A stretch of 64,000 bases of DNA from Eubacteriales Family XIII. Incertae Sedis bacterium (GCA_031261345.1 JAISKC010000063.1:7490-71489), one strand, 5' to 3'. Shown: positions 6,090-57,666, counted from the first letter of the stretch. Notes: generated by a model from the letters alone, not told the origin. Translations and numbers: made by a program.

Positions 6090-7769
6090 TTATGCAATTG
6101 CAATTAATTCTCGAATTCTTTGTTCCAACTTGACTTGGTCAATATTGCCATAATCGTCCAATATGTTTCTGATATATTCTGCTGGAGAAGTATTTTCAAC
6201 AATCCATGGTAGATAGCGCCTAGATGATGTGTATTTCAATGCGTTTAATACTTGCAATTCCTCTCTTGGACCGAATGGGTGCAAGAAATTATCCAAGGCT
6301 TCTGTAAATTCGAATTCTGTAATAGTAGTCTTTCCCACTTCATTTGCAATAATATTTGCTTCGTCTATAATGCCAACAATTTGGCGACCCGACACTTTTT
6401 TGTTTGCTTTTGAAAAGGCATTGATTATTCCAGTCGAATCAATTTGAATATTAGCTCTTTCTGCAACCTTCTCCGCAATGCTAGCCTTCTCTTCAGGAGA
6501 ATCAGCCTCCAAAACAGGTAACACTTTCAATCTACTTCCCGCGAAAGCACTATCAATGAGCTCCGGTTTGTTGGATAGACCTATTAGCGATATTCCATTA
6601 TTGCTACCTGTGTCTCCAAGCCACTCCAGCAAAATACCTCTAAGGGCATTATCAGTTTCTGAGCTTTCAGTTCTGGAGTTCGTTCTCTCCCCAAAACCTT
6701 GGCTTTCGCACTCATCCACTATCACAAGAATTGGTGCCATACTTTCAATAATGGAAATTACTCTTCTCAGTTTCCTTTCACTTTCGCCATACCACTTGTC
6801 TTTTACTGCAGACAAAGAAACAGCCGGCACACCCATTTCCCGCGCTATTGCAACGCTTACGTAGGTTTTTCCTGTCCCGGGAGGACCTACAAGAAGAAGC
6901 CTCAAAGTTTTCCCTTTCATATCATTTACATACTTTTTGACGTTTTCCATCCCAGCAACATCTCTGTTTAAATCTGTGTCTTCTGTACGCACAAAAAGCA
7001 TTCCTTGTGCTGCCTCATTTATCAAATTCACCTTAAATTCGACAACATCACTAATTTTCAAAGGATTCTCCCTACTCGTCAATTTCCGAAGCCTAGATAT
7101 CGCATCTATTGTAAAGCCACCTGTGCTATTTGCAAGTTGATTGATATCAACTTCAGGAGAGCAGACAATTGGAGGCTTTGCAGTTGCCGCACCCATTATG
7201 GTTATCGCCTCCCTTCTCTCATCAACCCCAGGGAGTCTTAAGGATACCGACTGAATACCGATTGACTGCAAAACCGTTGAATCTATATCGTCCGTTCTGG
7301 AGATTAGTATAATTTGATGCCCCTGATTGTTCCATCTACTATCTGTAGTGGCACGACTAACAATATACTCTCGAATTGTTGAGGAGGATGGTTCATCTAT
7401 GCCACCTTGGCAAGGCATAATGTGCTCAGCAAAATCGAAGATGATTGTTGTCCTTCCTGCGCCTTCCCTCTCAAGGTTTCTAAAAATGCCAGTGATTACT
7501 TCAATTGGGCTTCTGAGATTGTCCCTATCGTCTTGTAGTTCAGAAAGCACATCCTCATTTCCAGTGACAATATTTTCAATTCCTCGCTCAAATGAATAGT
7601 AAACAGCAGGAATACCTTGAAATTCCGATTCCTCGGCGATAATCCTTCGAATCGGAACTAGGTGTCCTCCGTAAATAAACAAATCACTTGTATTGGAAGT
7701 AAAATTCAACACAGTATTTGTTTTTAATGCATCGCTGAAGCTTTTTACAATAACATCTGTTCTACTCAT
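6090..7769 (-). CDS. AAA+ ATPase (classical clade) with a degenerate N-terminal AAA-like lobe
   Basis: Walker A LLLVGPPGTGKT, Walker B ILVIVDECES, and a second-region-of-homology-like GLSNKPELIDSAF. The N-terminal ~270 aa keeps Walker-B-like TTIIFDFAE and LPGVDERREAI but has no P-loop. Confidence 0.85.
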   Translation of the reverse strand: MSRTDVIVKSFSDALKTNTVLNFTSNTSDLFIYGGHLVPIRRIIAEESEFQGIPAVYYSFERGIENIVTGNEDVLSELQDDRDNLRSPIEVITGIFRNLEREGAGRTTIIFDFAEHIMPCQGGIDEPSSSTIREYIVSRATTDSRWNNQGHQIILISRTDDIDSTVLQSIGIQSVSLRLPGVDERREAITIMGAATAKPPIVCSPEVDINQLANSTGGFTIDAISRLRKLTSRENPLKISDVVEFKVNLINEAAQGMLFVRTEDTDLNRDVAGMENVKKYVNDMKGKTLRLLLVGPPGTGKTYVSVAIAREMGVPAVSLSAVKDKWYGESERKLRRVISIIESMAPILVIVDECESQGFGERTNSRTESSETDNALRGILLEWLGDTGSNNGISLIGLSNKPELIDSAFAGSRLKVLPVLEADSPEEKASIAEKVAERANIQIDSTGIINAFSKANKKVSGRQIVGIIDEANIIANEVGKTTITEFEFTEALDNFLHPFGPREELQVLNALKYTSSRRYLPWIVENTSPAEYIRNILDDYGNIDQVKLEQRIRELIAIA

Positions 7770-7778
7770 TTTTTTCTC

Positions 7779-8444
7779 CTATACTGTGAGTTTTCCTTTT
7801 ACGGCCTTATTTTTCCCTTTTACAGTCGTCTTGCTCTTCTGCGAGACAACATCATCCGTTTTAAATTGCTTCCCCCTTGTTTCGGGAACCAAAAGAATCC
7901 CCTCTTCAAGCGAGATATTCTTTTCTCGGGCAATTGTGGCCCCTACTGCAACCAGACCTCCACCTTTAGTGTCTCTATGAGGGACATGCTTTGTTTTCTT
8001 CAGCTTGATACCGTTTTCCTCAATCTTGTCCTCAAACTCCTTTTGCTTTGCTTCACAGGAGGAGTCGGACAGACCAACCCAGTCCGTTTTTATACTTCCA
8101 GCATTCTCAACAAGAACGAAGACCGACTCGTGATTTTTCGTTGCTCCAATAACATAATTATCATTTTCATTTCTAACAATATTTGTAATGTTGAAATCGA
8201 GACTTTGCAGAGAATCCTGAACAATGAATGACGTAACCAATGATGTTACCTGCGTTGATGTCAAATCGAGACTGCCGCCATTTGATAGCAAATTACTGAC
8301 CTCCGTTTTAAGTGTTGTTGCTTCTCCTAGCAAAGTGATATTTTTGGTTTTCAAACTCTCGTTTTCTGTTGCGACTAAATTCTTTACGCAAACATCTGTC
8401 AATAGTGTGTCAAGTGAAACTGCTACTGAATCATATGTACTCAT
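7779..8444 (-). CDS. hypothetical protein (221 aa, Lys-rich C-terminal tail)
   Basis: ATG 8444 is preceded by AGGAGGAG, and the longer track start is rejected. It sits 16 nt after the upstream stop and 9 nt before the AAA+ start. No motif recognised. Confidence 0.6.
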   Translation of the reverse strand: MSTYDSVAVSLDTLLTDVCVKNLVATENESLKTKNITLLGEATTLKTEVSNLLSNGGSLDLTSTQVTSLVTSFIVQDSLQSLDFNITNIVRNENDNYVIGATKNHESVFVLVENAGSIKTDWVGLSDSSCEAKQKEFEDKIEENGIKLKKTKHVPHRDTKGGGLVAVGATIAREKNISLEEGILLVPETRGKQFKTDDVVSQKSKTTVKGKNKAVKGKLTV

Positions 8445-8460
8445 AATTTCTACTCCTCCT

Positions 8461-9723
8461 TTAATCAAATACTTCATCTCTAGGATCAACTATTAGCGGG
8501 TCTGATTCTGGCAGTGGTGGCTCTGGCTCCGGATATGATTCGACAGGTGGTGGGTCTTGAACTTGACTTTGTGCCTGCCGCCTATATAACTCCGTCAATC
8601 CAGCATCATTTATTTTACGTTCCAAGTCCGCTTGGAGATTTCGTAGGTATACATCTCTCTCATCATCTATCTCATTGACTTTGAGTGCGATATCTTCAAT
8701 GTCCGCTTTTGCATATTTAATGTTATTGAGGTGCTTGCCCTTCTTGTCCAAGATGACGCCGACGGCCTCAATAAGAATAGCCAATGTTCCGATAAAGGGG
8801 AACACCTTTTTATTTCGATCGCGTTCTTCTTCCACACCTTGTATTTCATCCTCGAATATTTTTTCAATTGCCGGAGTATATGTGCTATTTGCAATATTTA
8901 TCGTTATGCTTGCATTTATCTTGCTTAAATCACGATTGTAAATTTGTACTGCTCGGTCTGACGAAAACCAAAAGGCCGATACGATTATAATAATGAATAC
9001 GGCAACTCCTGCCACAATGCATTTGAGAAATGGGACGGTTTTCCTTTCCACAAACTCACCAACCAAGTGAAAATCATCCCATCCCACAAGAAAATAATTT
9101 GCACAACCTGCTACAGCCAACGAAACAATCAGGGAAATACCAGCGGCAAGAATCAACTGTATAGTTTGATTGTCTCCCCAGAGATTAAAGTCTTTAAAAA
9201 AAATAAATTCAAAAATGACAGTGGCAATAAACCCACCCCAATGCATCCAGGAAAGAAGCGTATTTGGGACTTTCTCAAATCTGTTTGTCTCTTTGATAAC
9301 AAGTCCGCTTGTAATCCCATGTAATTTATCCGCATCTTGGAGTCCATATATAGAATTTGATTCTCTTCCCTCAAGAAGCGCGTCTATTGCTTCTATATAG
9401 CCTTGAACGCAAACTCTTTGTGTTGCGATTTCACTTTCCAAGGTTTCATCATTGCAAAATTCCAACAGCTCATCAAAAATCGGTGGAATATAAGACAAGG
9501 TCTCTTTTTCATCTCGGAGACTATCATTGTAATTCGGACTCTCCAATAAAGTAATCCGAATCTCTTCTTGAGCCCAAAAGAGAGGATCTCTTTCCATTAG
9601 GTTTCTGTTGTTTTCCCTTGCAGCCGCAGCAGCGGCCCTGCGAAGAACATCCTGCCTTTTTTTTTCGTGCCAGTCTCTCCACCACTTCCCTGTAAAAAAA
9701 TCCACTATAATATTATCCGACAT
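8461..9723 (-). CDS. integral membrane protein (~4 TM) with coiled-coil and Pro/Glu-rich C-terminus
   Basis: RBS AGGAGAG. Hydrophobic segments WGGFIATVIFEFIFF, IQLILAAGISLIVSLAVAG, FLKCIVAGVAVFIIIIVSAFWF and VFPFIGTLAILIEAVGVIL. C-terminus reads PPPVESYPEPEPPLPE. Confidence 0.65.
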   Translation of the reverse strand: MSDNIIVDFFTGKWWRDWHEKKRQDVLRRAAAAAARENNRNLMERDPLFWAQEEIRITLLESPNYNDSLRDEKETLSYIPPIFDELLEFCNDETLESEIATQRVCVQGYIEAIDALLEGRESNSIYGLQDADKLHGITSGLVIKETNRFEKVPNTLLSWMHWGGFIATVIFEFIFFKDFNLWGDNQTIQLILAAGISLIVSLAVAGCANYFLVGWDDFHLVGEFVERKTVPFLKCIVAGVAVFIIIIVSAFWFSSDRAVQIYNRDLSKINASITINIANSTYTPAIEKIFEDEIQGVEEERDRNKKVFPFIGTLAILIEAVGVILDKKGKHLNNIKYAKADIEDIALKVNEIDDERDVYLRNLQADLERKINDAGLTELYRRQAQSQVQDPPPVESYPEPEPPLPESDPLIVDPRDEVFD

Positions 9724-9731
9724 AATCTCTC

Positions 9732-10643
9732 CTAATTAATAAATTCCGCAACCGCTACAGTAGTCTGCTCAGGATTATAGTCAATCAATCCGATGCTATA
9801 TTGCTGAAGAAATTCTTTTAGCAAAGCCAATCTTTTCTCCCCTTCACTAGCACTGTCTGGGGTGGCTAATATCAAAACAGCCTGTGCATTATCAAAAGCC
9901 CACGGTGTAATATTGTCGGGTTCGATATTATCAATCAAATCGCTTGCAATCAAAATTGACACATCTTTATTTCCTCGCAAAGCTGACAATCCAGCCTGAA
10001 TGGTATTGTAAATACCACTCCCGCCACCAACTATTTCTAGCTGTGTATTCCTTATCAGTTCGCTGGCTTCTTGTGCAGAAATTAATGCTTCCTCATAGGC
10101 TTTGTCCCAATTTTCCTTTTCAGCCTGCCAAGTTGCTGCTTCCATTGCATCATCACCTATTGGCATAGCCGCTAAAGCAGGAACACCCTTCCTGACAATA
10201 ACAACATCAGATTTATTGCCGGTTTGCTGTGGATTTGCCCCGATTGCCAGAATACGAAGCCTCAGTTCCGGAATCTCATTCACACCATCTGTAACTTGAG
10301 TCGGCTTTTCAGTAATATTAACGCTATCCGCCAAAGCCTCCTGGACACCTATATAAAAACTATAATCTGTTGAATTAGTCGTGTCGATGATTGCGAGTTT
10401 TTGTCTTACGGTTAACTCATTCGCTCCAACAGGAGTAGCCGATTCCCCAGATTCATTATTAAAGAGCGCATCTAAGTGAGTTTTTTCTAGGATTGTATCA
10501 AGCGTACTTGATGAGAACATCTTTAGGAGTACAACCACAATTGCAATTATTGCAATTATTGCAATTATCGGCTTGAAAAAGGGTCTATTTCCACGACCAT
10601 ATCGCCTTCCATTCCTTCCTCTGCTATTTCTGCCCCTACGCAT
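9732..10643 (-). CDS. N-terminally membrane-anchored protein, possible vWA-like domain
   Basis: Arg-rich N-terminus (MRRGRNSRGRNGRRYGRGNR) followed by the TM segment IIAIIAIIAIVVVLL. The vWA call rests on weak hints: the DxTxS motif AIIDTTNST and ILIASDL. Confidence 0.55.
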   Translation of the reverse strand: MRRGRNSRGRNGRRYGRGNRPFFKPIIAIIAIIAIVVVLLKMFSSSTLDTILEKTHLDALFNNESGESATPVGANELTVRQKLAIIDTTNSTDYSFYIGVQEALADSVNITEKPTQVTDGVNEIPELRLRILAIGANPQQTGNKSDVVIVRKGVPALAAMPIGDDAMEAATWQAEKENWDKAYEEALISAQEASELIRNTQLEIVGGGSGIYNTIQAGLSALRGNKDVSILIASDLIDNIEPDNITPWAFDNAQAVLILATPDSASEGEKRLALLKEFLQQYSIGLIDYNPEQTTVAVAEFIN

Positions 10644-10836
10644 AAAGATTATTCCTTTCCAATCATTAAATACAAATACCCTTTGCGGAAAGATATTGAA
10701 CTATTAGTTTCTATTTGCTAATTTTGCTATAACATTTGCATTATACACTATGCATTTCTACAATGGAATACCAAATCCACTTTATTGGCAACGCTTTTCT
10801 GCAAAATGAACTCACGAATATTCAACAAGCATTATC

Positions 10837-12858
10837 TTATGATACTCTTTTCAGTGGGAAAGAGCACGGCGATGTATCAACTGTATAGTCGCCATAGACT
10901 TGTACCCATCTGATATTATTGTTATCCTTTACAAGGATTTCAAAGTGATAATTGCTGTTTACTGCACCATATAGAGTCGTCATCATTGTGAGGATACTTG
11001 TGCCCTCAAAATTTATAGGGATAGAGTTGCCTTCTGCTTTACCAACTGTATATGTGCCTGTTTCGGCATATTCGCCCCAGTCCTCACCAAGATTCAGTGC
11101 GTATGTGAATTCTCCATTACTAAAGAATTCAAGTGTGTAATCTTGCCCTGAATCCCACTTTCCTATGAGGTTAAAGTCACCAGCATTTCTATCAGGCTCT
11201 GGTTCAGGTGTGGGCTTCTCTTCAGGGATATTCGTGTTATCCTCTTCATCATACTGTGGTGGTTCTATACGGCTACTGTTTAGATCCGTGGTGATTCCGG
11301 CTTCGGTAAATGCCTTCCTAATGTTTTCAACATCAATACTTGTCAATAGTCCATCAGACATCATGTATTCTGCCATTCGAACTGTTGCCGTTCCAAATTC
11401 ATTCATTGTGCAGTCTGAAGGAATCATATGCTCTGTGCCATACCATAACTTTGCAAACTCTGCGACTCTACCTTTTGGAGCCCCCTCAGTCCCCAAAAAT
11501 TCTACGCCAATATTATATGCAACATAGTCGATAATAAGAGAATTTGTATGCACTCCACCATTGTCTTCACTCGTCCATACGTAGTTGTCCATAGTCTTTT
11601 TGTTTGTGTAGTTGCGAATCACATTACGCCAATCGCAATGCCCGGTGACATTATGTTCAACAATCTCCCCAAAGATATCAGAGACGGCCTCATTGATTGC
11701 TCCCGACTGATCTCTGTATATCAATCCTTCGGGAGAAACGACCGTATCAGAAACTCCATGCGTAAATTCATGGGCGACAACATCCAGATTTCTTGAATAT
11801 TCCTTGCTACCTTTCTTTGACACAACAAAACTCATCCATCCCTCACCAGTATCTGAGTCGTATGAGAAGTACGCATTATCAGCTCCAAGAATATTTACAT
11901 ATATAGGCAACTTACTATTTCTATTGTCAAACTGTGTTCTATTCAAAGTATTGCTGAAAAAATCATATGTGCGAGCCATGTTGCCCATTGCATCAATTGC
12001 AGACTTGTTGTTATCCGCAGATGTAACAGGCTTGGCTGATTTAATATTTTCATATTTCTTATATTTGTTCGTATAAGTCTGGAGGTTGCGACCTTTATCG
12101 ATCATTAGTCTCTGCCCATTCTCATCTTCATAGGGAATGTCATATTCTGAGTCATCTTGTCCTCTTGCCTTCTCAAATGCACTACAGACTTCACTCAACG
12201 CATCAATAACTTTACCGGATTTCGCATCTACGAATATTGACATTGACACATATGTGTCCGAATAACCATTAGCCTTAATTTCATATGCAAGAATAGGATC
12301 CGCGCCTATAGAATATATGACTAAACCCTTTGCTGTTGAAGAAATGAAATCTTCGTTACAATCCTGCTTTTTCACAAGATATTGTTCCGCTGCATCCATT
12401 GCCTCTTGTTCTGTGACTTTAGGATTTGTTTCAATATTTGATATCGCTAGATAATTACCGCTTGCTCCTTGTGAAACACCATTGTCACCAGCAACAACTA
12501 CCATACTGCGCCCATATACTTCTATTCCATTATAAATTTGCTGAGTGTGATAATAAGTTCTTGAATCAATAGTATTATCGCCAGCCGGAATAAACACTTC
12601 GGTAGCATTCACGAATCCATAATCTTCGGAAAATACATTGAGCGAATCAATTGCACTTGCTGCATCAGTAATAAGAATATCAGTATATGTGCCATCATAC
12701 GTAACATATATTGACTCTTCTTTTTCAACATCACCTTTTGCTGAGTGTCCTTGAAAAAAAGGAATTGCAACAAACCATCCGATTGCAGCTATCGCAAGCA
12801 CAACGATAAAGGCAATAATGATACCGACTCTAACTTTTCCCGATGTAGATTTGAGCAT
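10837..12858 (-). CDS. M4 (thermolysin-family) zinc metalloprotease, N-terminal membrane anchor, extra C-terminal domain
   Basis: HEXXH motif in VVAHEFTHGV and the third zinc ligand in GAINEAVSDIFGE. TM segment VGIIIAFIVVLAIAAIGWFVAI. I use ATG 12858 (GGAGGG 7 nt upstream) rather than the track's 12921. Confidence 0.85.
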   Translation of the reverse strand: MLKSTSGKVRVGIIIAFIVVLAIAAIGWFVAIPFFQGHSAKGDVEKEESIYVTYDGTYTDILITDAASAIDSLNVFSEDYGFVNATEVFIPAGDNTIDSRTYYHTQQIYNGIEVYGRSMVVVAGDNGVSQGASGNYLAISNIETNPKVTEQEAMDAAEQYLVKKQDCNEDFISSTAKGLVIYSIGADPILAYEIKANGYSDTYVSMSIFVDAKSGKVIDALSEVCSAFEKARGQDDSEYDIPYEDENGQRLMIDKGRNLQTYTNKYKKYENIKSAKPVTSADNNKSAIDAMGNMARTYDFFSNTLNRTQFDNRNSKLPIYVNILGADNAYFSYDSDTGEGWMSFVVSKKGSKEYSRNLDVVAHEFTHGVSDTVVSPEGLIYRDQSGAINEAVSDIFGEIVEHNVTGHCDWRNVIRNYTNKKTMDNYVWTSEDNGGVHTNSLIIDYVAYNIGVEFLGTEGAPKGRVAEFAKLWYGTEHMIPSDCTMNEFGTATVRMAEYMMSDGLLTSIDVENIRKAFTEAGITTDLNSSRIEPPQYDEEDNTNIPEEKPTPEPEPDRNAGDFNLIGKWDSGQDYTLEFFSNGEFTYALNLGEDWGEYAETGTYTVGKAEGNSIPINFEGTSILTMMTTLYGAVNSNYHFEILVKDNNNIRWVQVYGDYTVDTSPCSFPLKRVS

Positions 12859-13023
12859 ATATTCGTTCCCTCCATATTGGTATATAATTAACTTACACCA
12901 ATTATATATGATGGAATTCACGAATGGAAAATAAGCTCCACCTTACCCGCCGACCTATTACATGATAAAATGGTCAATAGTAAGAACTAGGGAAACCAAT
13001 AAGTTGCAAAATCCACAATATGA

Positions 13024-13860
13024 TTAAATGTGATTCAATACGCTACACATATCATCATATCCCATCTTCGCACAGACCTCTAATTTGCTTTGATTTGCAG
13101 TAGTTCTTTTGACCATTTTTGACATATCACTTGGATGACATACCAATACCTTACTTTTATCGGCTTTGTTTTGTAAATAGTCCATCATAATATTTGATTC
13201 TCCATTTCTTTCAATAATTTCCTCAACTAATGCATCATTATATTTTGACAAAAATAACTTATATGCCTTTCGCATTAAGAACCCCATTTCCTTAGGTCTG
13301 GCACAAATATCTTTTGTCAGAATAACAATTGTCAAATCATATTCTTCGATTAATTCATCTTGAAAAGGAATTGGAGTGGCAACACCACCATCCACATAGC
13401 CTTCTCCCTCTATGTCAACAATTTTGCCATACAGAAGAGGGAGAGCCGAGGTTGCCCGTATAAGCTCATAAATATCAGCTTTTCCATCATTACGATATTG
13501 AAAAGGAGCTCCTGTTTCTGCATCAGTTAGCATAATATCAAATACAATTTTTGATTTTTCCAACAAATCTATTTCTAGCGGATTCTTAGCTTTTAATGTG
13601 TCAACCATAAAATCAATATCTACAATTTTTTTTAATCTGAGAAAATTTACAAAATCCTTATTACTCAAATATCTAACATAAAAATCCACTGCCTGCTTCG
13701 TCCTCTTTGAAATGTAATAAGAAGCATTAATTGCTCCAGCCGATGAACCCACTATATATTTTATGTCATCAGCATATTTTGATTCCGCTAAAGCATCTAA
13801 TGCTGCCATTGAATAAACACCACGCATTCCGCCTCCTTGAACAACAACCGCTATTTTCAC
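13024..13860 (-). CDS. patatin-like phospholipase (copy 1)
   Basis: QGGGMRG oxyanion motif, GSSAG nucleophile elbow and VDGGV catalytic Asp. GTG start with GAGAGGTG upstream, 1 nt after the stop of copy 2. Confidence 0.85.
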   Translation of the reverse strand: MKIAVVVQGGGMRGVYSMAALDALAESKYADDIKYIVGSSAGAINASYYISKRTKQAVDFYVRYLSNKDFVNFLRLKKIVDIDFMVDTLKAKNPLEIDLLEKSKIVFDIMLTDAETGAPFQYRNDGKADIYELIRATSALPLLYGKIVDIEGEGYVDGGVATPIPFQDELIEEYDLTIVILTKDICARPKEMGFLMRKAYKLFLSKYNDALVEEIIERNGESNIMMDYLQNKADKSKVLVCHPSDMSKMVKRTTANQSKLEVCAKMGYDDMCSVLNHI

Positions 13861-13861
13861 C

Positions 13862-14737
13862 TTAGCACCTCTCTTTGCTTTGAATATACAATAAATATTT
13901 TTTTATTTCTTTTATAACATTTTGCATATCAATATGCCCCAATGCTGAACATTTCTCTAGTTTCTCTTTATTTGAAGTAACTATCGAAGCCCTATCCTTT
14001 AAATTGGATGGAAAACACACGAAAACATTACTATTACTAATTTTGTATTGTAAAAAATCCATCGTAGCATTGTATTCAACGTTCTCACCAACAAGTTTTT
14101 CTACAACATTATCCGAATACTTCGATAAAAACACTTTGAAAACATTTTTTAAAAACCTACCCATCTTTTTTTTTCGATCATTTATATCACAAGTCAAAAT
14201 CACAATAACTAGATCTGAATGTTCTATCAATTCATTATTTAATGGTAAAGGCGATGCAATTCCACCATCACAGTATAATTCACCTTCTATAGAAACAAAC
14301 CTATTGTAAAAAAATGGAAGAGCAGCTGTAGCTCTTATTAACTCATAAATGTCAACACTGCCATCATATGTAAAAAGTTCCGGGTTAGCGGTTTTCTCTT
14401 CAGTTAATGCCACATCTAATTTGATGTTTGAAGTTCTCAACAACTCTATGTTTAAAGGATTTTCCAACTTCAGGGTGTCAACCATGAAATCAATGTCTAC
14501 TATCTTATTAAATCTATGTAAATTAATAAAATTCTTATTACTGAGATAATTAATATAGAAATCCACAGCCTCCTTTGTCCTTTTAGAAACAAAATATGAC
14601 GCATTAATAGCTCCAGCAGAACTTCCGACAATATACTCAACATCTTTCGCCAATTCCGAGTTTGCCAATGCATCTAAAGCTGCCATAGAATACACACCAG
14701 CCATACCTCCACCCTGAACAACAACAGAAATTTTCAA
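13862..14737 (-). CDS. patatin-like phospholipase (copy 2, Arg of the oxyanion motif replaced)
   Basis: QGGGMAG, GSSAG and CDGGI. It is clearly paralogous to copy 1 over its full length. The TTG start overlaps the NTPase stop (TTGA). Confidence 0.85.
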   Translation of the reverse strand: MKISVVVQGGGMAGVYSMAALDALANSELAKDVEYIVGSSAGAINASYFVSKRTKEAVDFYINYLSNKNFINLHRFNKIVDIDFMVDTLKLENPLNIELLRTSNIKLDVALTEEKTANPELFTYDGSVDIYELIRATAALPFFYNRFVSIEGELYCDGGIASPLPLNNELIEHSDLVIVILTCDINDRKKKMGRFLKNVFKVFLSKYSDNVVEKLVGENVEYNATMDFLQYKISNSNVFVCFPSNLKDRASIVTSNKEKLEKCSALGHIDMQNVIKEIKKYLLYIQSKERC

Positions 14738-16719
14738 TTTACTTTCTCCTTTTTATTTCGCTGCAGATTGTAATTGCTCAGATTAGAGAGAACAATCTCT
14801 GATTTATGAATATAGGAATTCATCCCTGAAATATGCATGTGCCTTACAGCAATGGCGAAAAAAATGAGAACAACATAACATATAAGATTTATTATATCTA
14901 AATCTAAATGAAAATAGGATAACGGTAAAAAATATGGTGGTAATATCTCATAACAATATGCAATTCCGAGAGCTAAAACAAAAGGCAGTAAGCATACTGT
15001 TAAGGCACCAATGTCATGAATTTTTGGACATTTATGTTTTTTAAAAGGACGTTCTTGAAAAAAACACAATCTAATACCTAAGGACAAACCGCCAATAGCA
15101 ATGGATATAATAAAAAATCTTTCCGAGACAAAAATTGCTGTTAAAAAAACGCAAATCGACATTATAGCTACTGTAAATAAGGAGCCTAAATTGTTATTTA
15201 AAGAATTTGTTTGATGAAGCAAAATCTCTTTGAAAAAACTATAAATATATAGTGTGAATAGTATATGAGTCATAGCCGCGCCTATATATTCACTGTGAAG
15301 ACCTAGGGATAGATTAAAGCTAAAATGATTACATTCAAATACGAATAATCTAAGGATAATCAATCCCAAAGTAACTACTTTGATAACGGTCGCAACGTTC
15401 AAAAGGTTTTTCAAAAGGTTTTCTGTTTTACTAGTATTTTGCTCGTCCAGAACTTTACTTTTCGCAATGCTTTGCATAGAATAAAATACTGATGAATCAG
15501 TATACCTTTTTGAAAATTCAGCCATTTTCAAAGAAACAAAATCATGAAACAACCTGTAATGGTATGTCCTGTCATTGATATTCATTTTCCTTTTAATAAT
15601 ACTAATTTCGGGGCTCAGCAAATAATCTAGCGTAGCTTTCAAATCGTCCGTCACCACAGTACTAGAAAAATCCAACTTGCACGAAGCATTAATCTGGCGA
15701 GGTGATAATTCACTTGCTATACTCTCACCTGAACTGAGTGCGCAAAGTACCTTTCTAGTTAAATTTCTATTCGGTGAAGCCTCAATAATTCTTTCAAAAT
15801 AGCGAACGAATGCGTCATTAGTATCTGTAAATACTATTTTTACACCCTGATTTTTTTCGAATTGAAATTGTGCGAAAGATACATTAGTTTCGATAAACAA
15901 TAAATTATCATCTTTTCCTATTATATCTATAAATACCCCTTTTTCGTCTTCATCGTCTTCCGAATTTTCTTCAGTTAAAAATGTAGATGTCCGAAAGTAA
16001 CTATCGATTAGAGTTTTATCAATCTCTGATCCCTCATTAATTAACGGCACAATTACTAAATTGTTATGCGTAAACACTAGATTAGTAATTCGTTTATCAA
16101 TCCATTGAATAATATCAAAAATTTTATCATCCCTAATGCAAAAAATTTTGAAAATTTTATCATTCTTATTATTAATAAATTTATTCAATTCATTATGGGC
16201 ACCATCTGCCTCGAGAAAATACCTTTCAAATTGGTCGAAAATAACGACTTGTTTCCCTGCAAACTTATTTTGTTCGATATCATTATAATAAACCGACTCT
16301 GTCATAAATGTTAACGGTCCACCATTTTCCCCTTTTATTTTATTATTATTGAAAATTTCTTTAACTAGGCTAGATTTACCAGAACCACTTTTCCCTGTAA
16401 CAATCGCAAAAGGCATTCCACTATTATATTTTTCTTGCAATTCATTTATAATATCGTTAAAGCATCTCCTTTCAATAAAATTTGCATTGAATGGATTAAA
16501 GGATTCGGAATTCTTTTCATTAAAATTTTTTGCACCGCCCTTTTTCCAAATAATTACAAGACCTATTCCTAATATTAGAAAAATTATGGGGTAAATAATC
16601 CATCTGATTCTAGTAGGTAATTCCTGACAAATTGAAGCCACTGGAAAAGTAAAAATCAAAATTAAAACAGTTTCTTGCTTCTGCATATTATCAATAATAG
16701 AACTCACTATTCTTTTCAT
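14734..16719 (-). CDS. transmembrane P-loop NTPase (STAND-like Walker B)
   Basis: Walker A TGKSGSGKSSLVKE and Walker B VVIFDQFERYF. There are two N-terminal TM segments and about 6 C-terminal TM segments. I prefer ATG 16719 (AAGGGAAA upstream) over the track's 16788. Confidence 0.75.
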   Translation of the reverse strand: MKRIVSSIIDNMQKQETVLILIFTFPVASICQELPTRIRWIIYPIIFLILGIGLVIIWKKGGAKNFNEKNSESFNPFNANFIERRCFNDIINELQEKYNSGMPFAIVTGKSGSGKSSLVKEIFNNNKIKGENGGPLTFMTESVYYNDIEQNKFAGKQVVIFDQFERYFLEADGAHNELNKFINNKNDKIFKIFCIRDDKIFDIIQWIDKRITNLVFTHNNLVIVPLINEGSEIDKTLIDSYFRTSTFLTEENSEDDEDEKGVFIDIIGKDDNLLFIETNVSFAQFQFEKNQGVKIVFTDTNDAFVRYFERIIEASPNRNLTRKVLCALSSGESIASELSPRQINASCKLDFSSTVVTDDLKATLDYLLSPEISIIKRKMNINDRTYHYRLFHDFVSLKMAEFSKRYTDSSVFYSMQSIAKSKVLDEQNTSKTENLLKNLLNVATVIKVVTLGLIILRLFVFECNHFSFNLSLGLHSEYIGAAMTHILFTLYIYSFFKEILLHQTNSLNNNLGSLFTVAIMSICVFLTAIFVSERFFIISIAIGGLSLGIRLCFFQERPFKKHKCPKIHDIGALTVCLLPFVLALGIAYCYEILPPYFLPLSYFHLDLDIINLICYVVLIFFAIAVRHMHISGMNSYIHKSEIVLSNLSNYNLQRNKKEKVN

Positions 16720-17147
16720 AGTATTTCCCTTATTATGGAATAGCATTATATATTTTTTTCCTTTGCTATTCTCTTTTAGCTTTAACATATAGTATATAAT
16801 AGATACATTGGATTAGCATTTTCCACTATCTCTTTGATGATTTCAGTAAAGCTCTAGCCACCAATCTTCCCAAGTCATTTGAAAAAAATCCGGCTAAGAA
16901 ACCTTTTCTTCATACACTGATACACACCTCCCTTGTTACGCGATGGATTATATGCTATCACACGCCCTTGTAATACAATAATGTTTACAGAAACAACACG
17001 CATTGCATTATGCTGTTTCAATGCTTAAATTGAAATTCTGATATTCAACATACATTCAAACCGATTCTGCTTATTATATCAAAATGTTCATATAAATAAA
17101 ATACGAAAAAATCCGTTCTTCAACCAGTGCTAATCTTGATTATACAA

Positions 17148-17173
17148 TGACTTCCATAAAGCCACGGAAATAC
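17148..17173 (+). repeat. partial copy of the GACTTATAGCCACGGAAA motif, at the composition step
   Basis: atgacttccataaagccacggaaata here versus atgacttatagccacggaaata at 19641-19662. Confidence 0.4.
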
Positions 17174-17207
17174 TACTCCAGAAAAAGCAATTATGTATTA
17201 AGATTTT

Positions 17208-18367
17208 TCAATCTTTCAGGCACCCAATCGGAACAACCCATACACCATTTTCCATTTGGAACGCAGACTCTGTGAAAGTCAATACCATCAGAAAGGATGG
17301 CTCTTGCATCTTCTTCGTGTCAATATTCTCCTTGAATTTAATCAGATTGTCTGAAGCAGCCTCAATGTAACCTGCGCCTATCTTCACTTCTACAGCACCT
17401 CAACGTCCGTCGTTGAGTTGGATAATGGCATCTACTTCTGCTCCGGTAACATCTCTGTAATAATACACATTACCATCAATACTGCTCGCATAGATGCGCA
17501 AATCGCGAATGCAAAGTGCCTCAAATAATAGACCAAAGGTATTGAAGTCTTTAAAAAGCCGCTCAGATGTTGCTCCAAATGCCGCAGATCCTCATAATTA
17601 ATACAACCGTAAGAGTACCATTGCCCCTGCAAATTCATTATAAGAATATACTCGTCTGCGAGATATTCGTTAAAAGGTTCCACCTTGCAAACTTAAGCAT
17701 GTGCAGTCTTATTTCTATATTTCAAGTAAATATATCACCACGTGAAGTTTATCACAGGAACTTGTAAAGCAAGTTTTTCATAATCACATTCTGTTCTTGT
17801 ACTTGGAACCATCATAGTAAATTCCTTTATATAAAAGGCACGAAATAAGTCCCGATTGCAGAGTACCGCCACTTTTATAAAATTGCGCACCCATTTTTCA
17901 CCTAAATCGAGATTTGGAGAATCGGCAAGGTTCTTAAGATATGGCACAGACTCAGGTCTCGATAAAAACCCCAAAGCTTGAACGAGCGATAATCTGGAGG
18001 CGGCGTCCACTTGATTCAAGCGACGATGCAATACTGAAAGTGAAGTGGCTGTGATCTTAGTCGGGTCACCAATTGAAAGTTTCCGAATGAAATCTGATGC
18101 ATAAAGATTTGCATCCTGTTCTGAAGCTTCTAAATCTTGAAGTGCATCCGTTAAATCATCAATAAGAACCCTATGTGTTTCACCCTCTAACAGAAGGGAT
18201 GGCTTTGTCTTAGCTTTCATCATATTTTCTTCACTGGTATCGGGGGCTTGCATATACAGAACGCTTTCGGCAACATGCTCGGCGGTGCTGGTCTTGCCAC
18301 ACCACTTCGATCCCTCTGTTAAAACAGCACCCATTGCCCTAAGAACCAATGTCAATTTCTCAGCCAT
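17208..18367 (-). pseudogene. decayed DUF4143-type AAA ATPase gene
   Basis: The N-terminus GAVLTEGSKWCGKTSTAEHVAESVLYM and the C-terminus KDFNTFGLLFEALCIRDLRIYASSIDGNVYYYRDVTGAEVDAIIQLNDGR*GAVEVKIGAG...VWVVPIGCLKD are typical of this family. There is an in-frame TGA at 17400-17402 where Trp is expected. At least one frameshift lies around 17.55-17.75 kb, which splits the gene into track ORFs 17432..17683 and 17735..18367. Confidence 0.7.
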
Positions 18368-19510: not shown

Positions 19511-19620
19511 ATAATCACCTCGCTGTACTTCTCGCCAGTTCACCAATGCTAAAACAATTATATCAGTAATCTCCACCGTTTATTTAAATTTCACCTGTGA
19601 TTTTGATTCGCCGCATAATT

Positions 19621-19660
19621 GGCTATAAGTGCTCAAAATAATGACTTATAGCCACGGAAA
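19621..19660 (+). repeat. hairpin repeat, copy 1 (GGCTATAAGT-13 nt-ACTTATAGCC-ACGGAAA)
   Basis: Perfect 10-bp stem between 19621-19630 and 19644-19653. Confidence 0.7.
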
Positions 19661-19735
19661 TATCATTTCTTTAGTTGAATTCCTTCAAATTACAGTATAT
19701 AATTCAATTCACAAAGGCCAAAGGGAATTTTATCT

Positions 19736-19775
19736 GGCTTTAAGTGTTCCAAAAAGTGACTTATAGCCACGGAAA
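19736..19775 (+). repeat. hairpin repeat, copy 2 (GGCTTTAAGT-13 nt-ACTTATAGCC-ACGGAAA), abutting the RBS of the ATPase gene
   Basis: About 33/40 identical to copy 1 and located 115 bp downstream of it. It ends 10 nt before ATG 19785. Confidence 0.7.
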
Positions 19776-19784
19776 GGAAAGTTT

Positions 19785-21197
19785 ATGAAAATTATTGGCC
19801 GCAATAGAGAAAAAGCTTTATTGAAATCATATTATGAGTCACAACATCCGGAGTTCGTCGCTGTATATGGCAGAAGGCGTACGGGCAAGACGTTTTTGAT
19901 CAAAGAATTCTTTGACAATGACTTTTTCTTCTTCTGTACAGGTCTTGCCAATGGAACTAAGCACCAGCAATTACAAGTCTTCAATGTCGCCATGAACAAA
20001 TATGGTTCCGGCGAATATTTGCCGCAGGACAACTGGCTCGACGCCTTCATTCAGCTATCAACTATGATTGAAAACAGTCCAAATGGGGACAAAAAGGTGA
20101 TTTTCCTAGACGAAATGCCGTGGATGGATACGCCGAGATCGAATTTTTTGATCGGCCTTGAGTACTTCTGGAACAGCTTTGCGTCCTCTCGTCCTGATGT
20201 ACTGCTGATTGTCTGCGGCTCATCTACCTCATGGATTGTGAACAAACTTTTCAGAAACACGGGGGGACTGTACAATCGAGTGACAAAACAGATGTCTATC
20301 AAACCATTCACGTTAGGGGAAACCGAGGAATTTTTTCAGGACCGCGGTATCACATTCAATAGATACCAAATGATTGAAAGCTATATGATTTTTGGTGGAA
20401 TACCCTACTATCTCGACTATTTTGATAATGAATACAGCCTTGCTCAGAATGTCGATATGCTCTGTTTTGGTGACACCGCATTACTGAGAAATGAATATTT
20501 CAGCCTATACTCAACTCTATTCAATGATTATGAAAATCATCACAAAGTTGTGGAAGCTTTATCGCTGAAGTCAATGGGGCTGACGCGAGAAGAATTGATT
20601 ACTGCCACAGGCCTCAGCAATGGCGGTGGATTCTCCCGAATATTGAAGGAGTTGGAACAGAGTGGCTTCATCAATACATATGCACCATTTTCGCGAAAAA
20701 GCAGAGGCTCGCTATATCAGCTCACGGATTCTTTCACGCTCTTCTACCACAAGTTTATGAAGAAAGGAAATAGAGATGCTCACTTCTGGACAAGCAACAT
20801 CGATGCATCCTCGCACAGGGCATGGAGCGGCTACGCATTTGAGCAAGTATGTTTCTCACATATTGAGCAGATAAAAGAGGCTCTGAAGATTGCGATAGTA
20901 GCGTCGAATGTGTCCGCATGGCGTAGCACGTCAGCGACCAAAGGCACTCAGATTGATTTGGTAATAGACAGGCGGGACCAAGTGATAAATCTCTGCGAAA
21001 TAAAGTATTCGATGTCTGAGTACTCAATTACAAAAGCGTACGATCAAATTCTCAGAGAAAGGCGAGCCACTTTCAGAGAAGAGACGAAGACAAAAAAAGC
21101 TTTGCATACAACGATGATCACGCCATATGGAGTGAAGCACAATGAATATTGGAACTCAATTCAGTCCGAGGTGACTATGGAGGATTTGTTCAAGTAA
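19785..21197 (+). CDS. ATP-binding protein, Arch-ATPase (AAA) + DUF234-type
   Basis: N-terminus IIGRNREKALLKSYYESQHPEFVAVYGRRRTGKTFLIKEF, Walker B VIFLDEMPW, and a C-terminal restriction-endonuclease-like segment. Confidence 0.75.
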   Translation: MKIIGRNREKALLKSYYESQHPEFVAVYGRRRTGKTFLIKEFFDNDFFFFCTGLANGTKHQQLQVFNVAMNKYGSGEYLPQDNWLDAFIQLSTMIENSPNGDKKVIFLDEMPWMDTPRSNFLIGLEYFWNSFASSRPDVLLIVCGSSTSWIVNKLFRNTGGLYNRVTKQMSIKPFTLGETEEFFQDRGITFNRYQMIESYMIFGGIPYYLDYFDNEYSLAQNVDMLCFGDTALLRNEYFSLYSTLFNDYENHHKVVEALSLKSMGLTREELITATGLSNGGGFSRILKELEQSGFINTYAPFSRKSRGSLYQLTDSFTLFYHKFMKKGNRDAHFWTSNIDASSHRAWSGYAFEQVCFSHIEQIKEALKIAIVASNVSAWRSTSATKGTQIDLVIDRRDQVINLCEIKYSMSEYSITKAYDQILRERRATFREETKTKKALHTTMITPYGVKHNEYWNSIQSEVTMEDLFK

Positions 21198-40530: not shown

Positions 40531-43500
40531 CTAGTTTGCCATCGCGCCGCTGTAGTCTATCTTCTCGTTGTCGTCATCCACCTTGTTTCTTAGCTTGTAG
40601 ACGATGAACGTTACGATATGGGCGATGAACACGATGCCGACAAAGAGCGTCCACTTGTTGATCCAAACCATCGGAAGGCTCAGGTCGTCGAAGACGAAGA
40701 AGGTTATCGGCGTCAGTATACCGAAGACAATCGTCAGGACTCTCGCGATGAACGCATTCCTTTCCTTTCTCACCACTTCGGTGCCCGCGTATCTCTCGAT
40801 GTCATTGTCCTCAAATCTGCGCTTCGCAATCTGCCAGACGACCATAAGTATCGAGATGATGATGGCAGCCATCGACATGATCAGCGACAGTAGGCTCCAC
40901 GCACCCTTTCCAAGGAAATTGCCGAGCGGCACATTGCCGTTTGCAAGGTCCGAGAAGAGGTTGCCGGTCTGCGACTCAAGCTTCTGCTGAGTAACCGCAT
41001 TGAAGCCCTCAAAAGCGGTGGCCGTGTTCGTAGGTGTCTCTGAAACGTTCGCATTCGGGCTATTGCCCGCTGATGGGTTCACCGGCGGATTGGTCTCGGG
41101 CTCGGGAGTCTCAGCAATGACTTCATCCCACTGTGCAGTCAGTGTCAAATCCCCTGCCGGCATGGTCAGGGCAGCACCCGATTGATACGTTCTGCCATTT
41201 GAGCCGTTCCAAGAAACAAACTCCCAACCCGTGCGTGCGGGTACCTGCGAAGATACCGTATATGAAGCACCCTCAAGCAGGTCTGAAGTTCCGCTCGGAA
41301 GTCCGGTCACGCCCGTTCCACCCGAAACGTAGCTGACCGTATAGGTATCGGGCTGCGGCGGCTCCACTATCACCTCATTCTGTTTCCAGACAGCGTAGAG
41401 ATTCACATTTTCAGTAATGGTAAGGCTTTCTCCGCCGGTATAAGTCGCCGACGTAGCTGTCGCGCTCTTCGACCAACCAAGGAACTCATGTCCATCACGA
41501 GCAAGTGTATTCACACCCGCCACGGTAGCTTTGCCGCCGTGAATATACGTCTCCGCCTTAGGTGCCTCACCCGACGTGTGAGCGTTTCCATCATACGTTA
41601 CGGTATGACTATCAAGTCCATAGACCGCGTAGAGTGTCGTATTATCCGTGATGGTGAACTCCTTCGTTCCGTCCACTTTGTAATTCGGTGTAGTAGCATT
41701 GGCTTTTGTCGCCCAGCCGGTGAACACACGGTGACTCTTCGTCGGCAGTGGCGTGAACAGCACACTCACCTTATCGCCGTGGTGATAATCCACCTTGCTA
41801 TCTGTAGGTACAGAGCCAGTGCCCCCATTAGCCTTGTATGTTACTGAGTAATTGTCGATTTTCCATTGTGCCACCAAAGTGATGTTGTCTTCGACCGATG
41901 TGATTGTAGCCTTGTTCGCGTAATTGCCCGTGCCATAGCTCGCGCCACCGTCTGTGTATGTCGCCAGCCAACCGTTGAAGTGATAGCCGACCTTCTCGAA
42001 AACATTCGCGGGAATCTTATAGCTCTTGCTGTGTTCTACATTGAGTGCAGAAGTCATAGTGCCGGCTGTCTTCCCATTTCCATCGAATGCAACGGTGTAT
42101 TTGTGCGGAATCCACTTCGCATAAAGCGATAGAGTCGGATCCCCATTTGCACCTTGAACTCCATTCGCGATATTGAGCACAGTACCGATGTTCGCTGCAC
42201 CAAATTCCCATTCAGTGCCGGCAGGACTATTTACATGCCAACCGTCAAATGTATAACCGGTGCGCGTCGGCTCAATGTCCGGAGCACCAGTAATGGTGGC
42301 ATCATATTCGGCACTTTCCTCCTTGGTAGCAAGAAGAGAATCGTCGTTTTGGTCGGTGTAGAGCGTTTCGCCGAGATAATGATAACTGATTTCTACATCC
42401 TTTGCTTCCCACTGAGCTGTGAGCGTCACAGAACCAACCGTGTCAGCTCCTGCAAGCGTTGAATAGGTCGGGTTCAATTCAGATGTATAAACGTTTCCGT
42501 CAAAGTCCGTATCACCGCGATTCGTGAGCTTCCATCCCTTGAAATCATACCCTGGCTTGGTGATCTGAGTTGCTGACGGGAGGAAAACCGTATCGCCCCA
42601 ATGTACAAACGGCACGGGATTGGTGACAGAGCCATCAAACGTTCCGCCATCTGGCAGATACCACACGGTGTATGAATATTGCGACAGCGAAGCCGTAAAT
42701 GTCACAGCCTCGGTGATCTTTGCCTGTAGCAACTGCGTACGATTCATCGGTGTTCCTGCATTGATAACGGTATTGCTACCATCGTTCAGCGTGACTGCCT
42801 TATTCGCCGTCCACACTACTGTTGCCGGATTGTATCCAGTGATAGTGTTTACACCTTGGAATATCGGCGCAATGGTAGGTGACGGCTGTTGATTGTAATT
42901 TTTGTATTCACTTGTCTGAGGAAATGTTGCACCTGTGCCCGCTTTATATGTCACCTCAGAAGCTGCCTTGAGACCTACTCCTGCAAGCTGAGTCTGAGGT
43001 GAGCTGGAGCCTACCGTAAATTCATAAGTGGCACTCGCATGACTTGTAGAGATATTCGACTGAAGAATATCCATATGCCAATCATAATCGGGGCTTGAGC
43101 CTGAAGACCTGTCACTCGGTGTATTTGGAGTAAAACCTCTCTGTACATCGTCGTTGTATATTGTCAAGGTGTAGTCTCCCGCCTTGAGATAATATGGAGT
43201 GCCGCCGGAGGTGAGGGAGGCAAAGTCGCCATTGTCTTCCACATCTATATTGAGCAGACTGATGGTATCTCCCGCAAGAGTTGCACTCACACCGCTCAAT
43301 CCTGTGAATGATTCTCCGGCATCTTTAATTCCATCCACGTCGAGATCGTTGAAGACGTTGCCTATTACACCAGCGGTAGCCGGCTCTGCGGCAAGTATCG
43401 AACCAAAGGTCCATACGCTTGAATCGCCGTCAGCTTGTTGCCATCCTTTCTGGTAACTGCGCCAATAGTTGGGCTCTCCCATAGGTGCGTTGTTGTCAAC

Positions 43501-57483: not shown

Positions 57484-57666
57484 TTGATTCCCCCCGTATA
57501 TAAAGAGTAGTATTGTTCTACAAACGCACAAAAACCTGTGTCATTTGCCCCCGTCGGCGAATCCGACAGTTCTATGATGTCAGAGGCCACAAATTCCCTG
57601 CCATTATCGGAAAAAAATTTGAGCCAACAACATCCTCAAGCATTACAACCCAATTGTCGTACTTAA

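Follow-up and report, generated by a model that had tools for sequence, protein, structure and literature searches.

To our knowledge, the STAND/NLR receptors (signal transduction ATPases with numerous domains/nucleotide-binding leucine-rich repeat receptors) of bacteria, plants, fungi and animals are soluble and sense their ligands via large repeat domains. As a rule, an Avs or bNACHT protein is soluble and consists of one polypeptide, with an N-terminal effector, then nucleotide-binding, helical and winged-helix domains in that order, and a large sensor made of tetratricopeptide repeats (TPR) or of WD40 repeats. The subject of this report is a cassette of three genes in a stretch of 64,000 nucleotides of DNA (the window) from an Eubacteriales Family XIII. 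Incertae Sedis bacterium (GCA_031261345.1 JAISKC010000063.1:7490-71489). On the minus strand of the window there are three co-directional, tightly coupled open reading frames (ORFs), which encode a P-loop nucleoside triphosphatase (NTPase) with eight transmembrane (TM) segments and two patatin-like phospholipases (patatin 2, next to the NTPase gene, and patatin 1, distal to it). The NTPase has the domain order of the Avs and bNACHT proteins, matches Avs4 and Avs5 in structure, has relatives that stand among defence genes, and would follow the same scheme, in which a sensor and a nucleotide switch act through an effector that kills the cell. In contrast to these proteins, it is an integral membrane protein with a bundle of six TM helices (about 210 residues) at the place of the sensor, and the effector is encoded by a separate gene.

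The KAP and Tmn proteins are, likewise, P-loop NTPases with TM helices and include members linked to defence, but in them the P-loop domain itself is interrupted by the TM helices, and Tmn is a one-gene system, whereas the TM segments of the window NTPase flank an intact STAND core. As for the effector, CBASS (the cyclic-oligonucleotide-based antiphage signalling system) uses patatin effectors (PMC13069673). The patatin of type I CBASS, which comprises a cGAS/DncV-like nucleotidyltransferase (CD-NTase) and CapV, is also cytosolic and is expected to degrade the membrane; in the cassette, activation would be by protein–protein contact rather than by a cyclic nucleotide. By analogy, the closest functional counterpart appears to be the fungal NLR PLP-1 (patatin-NB-ARC-TPR), in which allorecognition cell death needs the patatin domain and the nucleotide-binding motif of NB-ARC (PMC12881547). 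In PLP-1, too, a STAND switch kills through a patatin phospholipase, but PLP-1 is a soluble fusion with NB-ARC and TPR, whereas here the patatin is separate, the NTPase is nSTAND1-like, and a TM domain stands at the place of the sensor. The separately encoded patatin would thereby represent a second bacterial route to the control of a suicidal phospholipase, besides the cyclic-nucleotide-activated CapV, and one that parallels PLP-1.

The nSTAND1 clade was named by Kaur, Iyer, Burroughs and Aravind (eLife 2021; PMC8195603; Pfam PF20703). The effectors of nSTAND1 systems named in the accessible sections of that paper include TIR, caspase, trypsin and kinase, among others, and the word “patatin” is absent from the paper. 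Neither a membrane-embedded nSTAND1 nor a patatin partner was found in the accessible sections of it or of its 2020 companion paper, which, in those sections, deals with other membrane-proximal systems and not with an NTPase–patatin pair. Lee et al. (Nature 2026; PMC13581612) defined 589 STAND clades, in which sensors were clustered only if they had at least 400 amino acids; the main text contains neither “patatin” nor “phospholipase”, and the present NTPase family may be listed among those clades without being described. A literature search found no paper describing the NTPase–patatin pair, and PADLOC 2.0 and NCBIfam (June 2026), searched with the window protein and central members of the family, hold no model for the NTPase family. 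Thus, as far as these searches reach, the view of the initial annotation that this is not a named system stands: the pair is real and conserved, but rare and without a name, and it is a module of the STAND-based conflict type, not a new category.

The cassette is best explained, with a probability of about 0.6, as an NLR-like switch that resides in the membrane and governs a patatin effector encoded by a gene of its own, most likely in abortive infection against phages. Linkage of the NTPase to patatins elsewhere had been set beforehand as a test of the proposal, and it held in every NTPase-family locus examined, as a patatin gene lies immediately downstream in 14 of 14 distinct loci (the window, eight loci reached from patatin relatives and five reached from NTPase homologues). 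Because the adjacency recurs in 13 distinct loci other than the window, it is more than chance. From the patatin side, the genomic context was determined for ten relatives of patatin 2, and eight of them (P0004, P0012, P0013, P0014, P0015, P0029, P0059 and P0099; 34–42% identity to patatin 2) have immediately upstream an NTPase gene encoding 660–730 amino acids with an nSTAND1 match, which is split in two in locus L001. The two failures are the most distant relatives (at most 31% identity). From the NTPase side, the linkage is 5/5 (Umezawaea L012, Nocardioides L013, metagenome L020, the kinase fusion L037, and Coriobacteriia L038/L039). The hosts of the pair include Actinomycetota, a Coriobacteriia metagenome-assembled genome (MAG), a Bacteroidota MAG and the present Clostridiales MAG, and in most loci the two genes overlap or are separated by no more than 20 nucleotides.

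The patatins nearest to this group that lack an NTPase (loci L036 and L040) both stand alone: P0111 (30% identity to patatin 2) adjoins a gene for a TetR regulator, and P0098 (31% identity) adjoins acyl-AMP ligase and acyl-carrier-protein genes. This suggests that the STAND-linked patatin clade arose from stand-alone, probably metabolic, patatins. One NTPase, P0128 (L037:5001-8507), has a Ser/Thr kinase fused N-terminally to the TM-nSTAND1 protein, with the patatin still downstream, which is the usual STAND pattern of swapping N-terminal effectors or adaptors. In L037, the gene is flanked by genes for a DDE transposase, an 881-residue protein without assignment, a ThiF/E1-like protein and a ClpB-like AAA protein.

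The NTPase family is rare. When the window NTPase was compared with 1.84 billion cluster representatives by phmmer/HMMER (E<1e-3), only 20 relatives besides the NTPase itself were found: 14 with 647–706 amino acids, five with 417–582 amino acids, and one fusion protein with 1,168 amino acids. The best of these, P0122, matches residues 126–652 with 23% identity (E=9.5e-9), and the best-aligned stretches of the 20 relatives mostly cover the C-terminal half of the NTPase or nearly all of it. The clusters of the family hold one to three sequences each, and every member with a name in its source is labelled “hypothetical”. A word-indexed homologue search yielded only the NTPase itself when this was the query, and only unrelated nSTAND1 proteins when the family alignment was used; the poor yield is attributed to the query being AT-rich and very divergent. 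Scans of genomes, metagenomes and viral contigs relied on an alignment of eight closer family sequences, and recovered, among the matches listed, at least two full-length loci from genomes, and at least one full-length locus and a near-complete match on a 1.8-kb contig from metagenomes.

Against PF20703 (nSTAND1), the window NTPase scores 24.0 bits, which is below the cut-off of 27.1 bits, and matches over residues 112–143 (the P-loop) only. Its other Pfam matches (ATPase_2, AAA_16 and NB-ARC, the latter with 17.5 bits and a cut-off of 23.5) are likewise restricted to the P-loop segment and below their cut-offs. Less divergent members of the family score 42–60 bits against PF20703, over profile positions of about 20–345 (60.5 bits for P0122, and 54–55 bits for the NTPases of L012 and L013). 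The window NTPase is homologous over its full length to proteins that pass PF20703, and for this reason is placed with them; in BLASTP it aligns with the NTPase of L002 over residues 111–555, from the P-loop into the TM domain (E=3e-11). By these sequence comparisons it would be a divergent relative of the nSTAND1 clade, rather than a member as defined by Pfam, and, with its modelled structure also taken into account, it can be read as belonging, as a divergent protein, to a branch of nSTAND1 that is embedded in the membrane. Thus, the suggestion that the NTPase is STAND-like is right, and can be narrowed to the nSTAND1 clade, and not to KAP or NACHT.

The order of motifs along the NTPase is shared by the 19 aligned sequences of the family: a hairpin of two TM helices, a juxtamembrane motif FQPF...WPR, Walker A, a Walker B of the form hhhhDQFE, Arg219, the motifs GxLPLExQ and KVLCALS, His415-Asp416, and six TM helices. 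In the same alignment, G132, S134, G135, G137 and K138 of Walker A, D185, Q186 and E188 of Walker B, and Arg219, at the position of sensor 1, are invariant. The GxLPLExQ motif of the helical domain resembles the GLPL motif of NB-ARC, and is degenerate in the window NTPase. His415-Asp416 is MHD-like in position, as it follows a β-hairpin (residues 397–413), itself preceded by helices (residues 255–391), in the AlphaFold model. The full-length AlphaFold2 model, built from 21 sequences, has a mean predicted local distance difference test score (pLDDT) of 69, with 80–87 in most 10-residue blocks of the NTPase core and some weaker stretches. Its best Foldseek matches are SAMD9, Orc1/Cdc6, EfAvs5, AVAST5 and Avs4, with low TM-scores, as expected where the orientations of domains differ, and the family profile matches the NTPase domain of Avs4 among the sequences of the Protein Data Bank (PDB) (E=8e-5). 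Neither the window protein nor central family members matched any PADLOC model for Avs. The middle region of about 300 residues, which had been described as helical, does contain a helical domain, but is really an α/β nucleotide-binding domain followed by the helical domain and a winged helix.

By hydropathy, the NTPase has two TM segments near its N-terminus and five to six in its C-terminal part, and the AlphaFold model has six C-terminal TM helices, in agreement with the two plus about six segments first proposed. With two plus six helices, the model would place the N-terminus, the ATPase core and the C-terminus on one side of the membrane, presumably the cytoplasm. The two groups of helices differ in conservation. 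The N-terminal hairpin has the lowest value of any region of the NTPase (mean major-residue frequency of 0.34), and is probably a mere membrane anchor. For the C-terminal 6-TM domain the value is 0.50, compared with 0.50–0.54 for the NTPase core; 26 columns reach at least 0.8, including R480, Y501, H508, Y514, G566-G567, T597, G608 and H652, and the polar residues R480, Y501, H508, Y514, T597 and H652 are kept within TM helices.

In the Pfam scan of the NTPase no repeat domain was matched, and the C-terminal 230 residues are the 6-TM bundle instead, which occupies the place where STAND proteins normally carry a repeat sensor of the TPR/WD40 type. Modelled alone, the 6-TM domain forms six long helices (pLDDT 81; predicted TM-score 0.75), and a fold search of the PDB with this model gave no match at E<0.001. 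Matches to BAR-domain and G-protein-coupled receptor folds were dismissed as noise from long helices. The best geometric match is a bacterial TMEM175 potassium channel (5vre_A; TM-score 0.50/0.63, probability 0.96, E=0.54), a likeness between a model and a structure that could serve as a weak lead. Because the conservation of the 6-TM domain equals that of the catalytic core, and because its fold is absent from the PDB, this domain is more than an anchor. Somewhat speculatively, and with considerably more doubt than confidence on our part, it may be a true intramembrane sensor, which would make the NTPase the first NLR-like receptor to perceive an invader or membrane damage within the bilayer, before assembling a membrane-bound, resistosome-like oligomer that switches on the partner lipase. 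Cues could then be the injection of a phage genome, holin or superinfection proteins, or depolarisation, and a polytopic membrane domain in place of the repeat sensor would extend NLR-like pattern recognition to the membrane.

Both patatins pass the cut-off of Pfam Patatin (PF01734; 27.7 bits), with 89.4 bits for patatin 2 and 94.0 bits for patatin 1, and they are 58% identical to each other in a gap-free alignment. Ser40 (in GSSAG) and Asp157 (in DGG) are present in both, and invariant in all 120 homologues. The arginine of the oxyanion motif is found in 119 of 120 members of the family, the sole exception being patatin 2 (R13A). Thus, the contrast between GGGMAG and GGGMRG reported by the initial annotation, together with GSSAG and DGG, was confirmed, and the loss of the arginine proved to be unique to this copy. 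Most homologues (103/118) are closer to patatin 1 than to patatin 2, and patatin 1 is 37–42% identical to NTPase-linked patatins elsewhere; from sequence comparison, patatin 1 would be the conservative copy and patatin 2 the faster-evolving one. The nearest relatives of patatin 2 outside the window are at most 42% identical to it. As the two copies are closest to each other (58% compared with at most 42%), the duplication is lineage-specific. Patatin 2 also matches DUF6363 in Pfam (27 bits), a domain common in stand-alone bacterial patatins of uncharacterised function.

The tandem patatins that had been proposed as part of the system are present in the window, but are peculiar to it and not a feature of the family, since each of the 13 remaining loci has only one patatin. 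The third gene following the pair in L013 was considered as a tandem patatin and rejected, as it is unrelated and not a patatin. Sub-functionalisation, which the initial annotation suggested, is a reasonable reading of the two sequences: beside the canonical patatin 1, patatin 2 probably acts as a partner that is weakened or serves in regulation. The two may form the hetero-oligomer also suggested there. The duplication, in which one copy bears an oxyanion-motif change seen in no other homologue, would be a natural experiment on the sub-functionalisation of an effector.

Table 1. Coordinates of the features of the NTPase–patatin cassette in the window (residue numbers are those of the longest ORF of the NTPase)
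Feature	Coordinates	Strand	Remark
NTPase, longest ORF	14734..16788	-	684 aa
N-terminal 2-TM hairpin, residues ~40-82	16543..16671	-	hydropathy; model helices 38-54 and 59-81
STAND core (nucleotide-binding domain, helical domain, winged helix), residues ~97-430	15499..16500	-	alignment, AlphaFold, Foldseek
Walker A GKSGSGKS, residues 132-139	16372..16395	-	read from sequence
Walker B VVIFDQFE, residues 181-188	16225..16248	-	read from sequence
His415-Asp416, MHD-like, end of winged-helix domain	15541..15546	-	invariant in two family alignments
Conserved 6-TM domain, residues ~452-660	14809..15435	-	domain-alone model, conservation
Patatin 2, NTPase-proximal	13862..14737	-	291 aa, TTG start
Patatin 2 oxyanion motif GGGMAG	14696-14713	-	Arg13-to-Ala
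Patatin 1, distal	13024..13860	-	278 aa, GTG start
Patatin 1 motif GGGMRG	13819-13836	-	canonical
Patatin 1 motif GSSAG	13735-13749	-	canonical
Patatin 1 motif DGG	13384-13392	-	canonical
AT-rich intergenic region 5′ of the cassette	16789..17208	-	without ORF; promoter presumed there

ORF calls and direct reading of the sequence bore out the coupling of the three genes, and all of their motifs, where the initial annotation had placed them. The TGA stop codon of the NTPase gene overlaps the TTG start codon of patatin 2 (TTGA), with AGGAG located 8 nucleotides upstream, and the TAA stop codon of patatin 2 is 1 nucleotide apart from the start of patatin 1. The NTPase probably starts at Met24 (16719), giving 661 amino acids, because there is a ribosome-binding site (GGGAAA), the homologues begin there in the alignment, and the NCBI annotation also calls a protein of 661 amino acids (labelled hypothetical) from this position. 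The module is compact (two to three genes, about 3–3.8 kb) and directly clonable.

In other genomes, the pair tends to stand near defence genes. A scan of 79 neighbouring proteins from ten loci with PADLOC (E<1e-10) revealed RosmerTA RmrA (two), PD-Lambda-1 (375 bits; directly adjoining in L006-L009), Shedu SduA (219 bits; in L010), a HamB-like helicase (assigned from the L010 copy, which was the copy scanned), PDC-M23B and PDC-S09. Other neighbours include integrases, transposases, PemK and HigB-like toxins, an MNT-like nucleotidyltransferase and the coupling protein of a type IV secretion system (T4SS). Thus, the family has the context of defence islands, which had also been set beforehand as a test, with Shedu, PD-Lambda-1, RosmerTA RmrA, the HamB-like helicase, the PDC candidates, toxin–antitoxin pairs, integrases and transposases nearby. 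The metagenome contigs L002 and L010 carry one type of island, bounded by integrases, with a DEAD-box helicase, RosmerTA RmrA and the NTPase–patatin pair. The cargo that comes next varies (in L002 a NOV_C protein and DUF7662; in L010 Shedu), and this island looks like a defence hotspot.

Several named systems were considered as identities for the cassette and rejected. No cyclase or CD-NTase is present among the neighbours, as the initial annotation had stated, so the cassette is not CBASS; the CapV equivalog model NF041079 gives the patatins 32–34 bits with a cut-off of 200, and their matches to PADLOC models of CBASS phospholipases are weak (34–38 bits). The phospholipase of DS-2/CBASS-DAC (NF053870), DS-2 being the CBASS variant composed of cGAS, DAC and a phospholipase, scores 18–33 bits with a cut-off of 400, and the patatins are far below the cut-off for RssA. 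MADS mad8, NB-ARC and NACHT likewise fell short of their cut-offs or covered no more than the P-loop. KAP/Tmn was rejected because there is no match to KAP_NTPase or Tmn in Pfam or PADLOC, and because the TM segments flank the NTPase domain.

Putting these elements together, the NTPase would be composed of a hairpin anchor, a core facing the cytoplasm (ATPase, helical and winged-helix domains) and the 6-TM bundle replacing the TPR/WD40 sensor, and the patatins are predicted to be cytosolic phospholipases with an intact Ser-Asp dyad. At rest, the STAND protein would be ADP-bound and monomeric, and the lipase inactive or held away from its substrate. A trigger in or at the membrane, perceived by the 6-TM domain, would lead to nucleotide exchange and oligomerisation; the oligomer would recruit or activate the patatin at the inner leaflet; and the patatin would hydrolyse phospholipids, so that the membrane collapses before the invader completes its cycle. 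The operon structure, the motifs, the homology, the arrangement of TM segments, the synteny and the gene content of the neighbourhoods are shown by the analysis; the defence role, the trigger, the activation by oligomerisation, the recruitment of the lipase and the degradation of the membrane are what we infer.

A number of observations weigh against a role as a defence switch. The membership of the window NTPase in the family is by transitive homology at about 20% identity; the scans of viral contigs with the eight-sequence family alignment found no member of the family; and the enrichment in defence genes was judged from about ten loci without a formal background model, while L034 and L038 have ordinary metabolic neighbours. 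Related stand-alone patatins occur in contexts of lipid metabolism, and the metabolic ancestry is real. Finally, instead of sensing, the 6-TM domain could serve as a transporter or, by forming a pore, as an effector. Some of these points favour a role in the remodelling of membrane lipids, either as housekeeping or under stress, whereby an ATP-gated membrane protein recruits the patatin for the turnover or repair of phospholipids and there is no part in conflict. The stand-alone patatins beside acyl-AMP ligase/acyl-carrier or TetR genes, the DUF6363 match of patatin 2 and the metabolic neighbours in L034 and L038 are what one would then expect. We regard it as unlikely, as the NTPase–patatin pair is distributed extremely patchily across phyla, in tiny clusters; the GC content of the window cassette is atypically low; the pair recurs in islands bounded by integrases or transposases with Shedu, RosmerTA, PD-Lambda-1 and toxin–antitoxin genes; and STAND NTPases are switches that oligomerise upon a signal, not metabolic ATPases.

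The same islands, with their integrases, transposases and T4SS coupling protein, would also suit an addiction or toxin–immunity module of a mobile element, in which the membrane NTPase restrains a toxic patatin and so stabilises the element or excludes competitors, rather than defending against phages. The tight coupling of the genes, with the putative regulator upstream, and the toxin–antitoxin pairs among the neighbours also fit this. Nevertheless, known antitoxins are far simpler than a STAND protein of 660–730 amino acids that includes a conserved 6-TM domain, its intact ATPase motifs imply a regulated switch, and the idea overlaps heavily with defence, since many toxin–antitoxin systems act in defence; taken by itself, it has a slim chance of being correct. 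Slimmer still is the chance that the 6-TM domain is the real effector, with the STAND oligomer forming a resistosome-like pore or channel and the patatin being auxiliary or a second effector. The conservation of this domain, which equals that of the ATPase core, the polar residues inside its helices (R480, H508, Y514, T597 and H652) and the geometric match to TMEM175 point in this direction, but the E-value of that match is poor, TM-scores of 0.5 are common among helical bundles, and a patatin partner that is so strictly conserved speaks for an essential lipase. A membrane-resident switch with the patatin as its effector, acting in defence, accordingly remains our preferred explanation.

The cassette differs in composition from its surroundings, with a GC content of 30–34% compared with 39–51% in neighbouring genes, which is taken as a sign of horizontal transfer. 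As boundaries of an island, tRNA genes were looked for around the cassette and none were found, and a search for flanking repeats gave none that were convincing. A scan of the AT-rich DNA around the cassette for promoters and terminators gave no more matches than chance would.

The cassette is directly preceded (17150-18367, minus strand) by a decayed ATPase gene of the AAA_14/DUF4143 type, comprising an intact N-terminal fragment with a P-loop (ORF 17735-18367), followed by frameshifted pieces and by an in-frame stop in the C-terminal part, whose end is near 17209; in PADLOC it has only a weak match, to PDC-S01. About 3 kb upstream of the cassette (19785-21197, plus strand) lies a gene for a full-length homologue of PDC-S27, a candidate defence ATPase in PADLOC (660 bits), with the domains ATPase_2, AAA_14 and DUF234. 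Two copies of a palindromic intergenic repeat of 41 nucleotides, TGGCTATAAGT...ACTTATAGCCACGGAAA, precede this gene (19620-19660 and 19735-19775), and a partial copy is located just after the decayed ATPase gene (17157-17172). The repeat may be an element resembling repetitive extragenic palindromes or a terminator.

Within 6090-12921 of the window there is a run of co-directional genes on the minus strand, which may be a separate system. It encodes an AAA ATPase of 559 amino acids (weakly IetA-like), three proteins without a family match (236 amino acids; 420 amino acids, with TM segments; and 303 amino acids), and a membrane-anchored peptidase of the M4 (thermolysin) type that is extended considerably at its C-terminus. 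Further away, a Ser/Thr kinase encoded at 400-1866 matches PD-T4-6 at the level of the kinase domain, and there are two giant ORFs on the minus strand, at 40531-46491 (1986 amino acids) and 51919-57531 (1870 amino acids).

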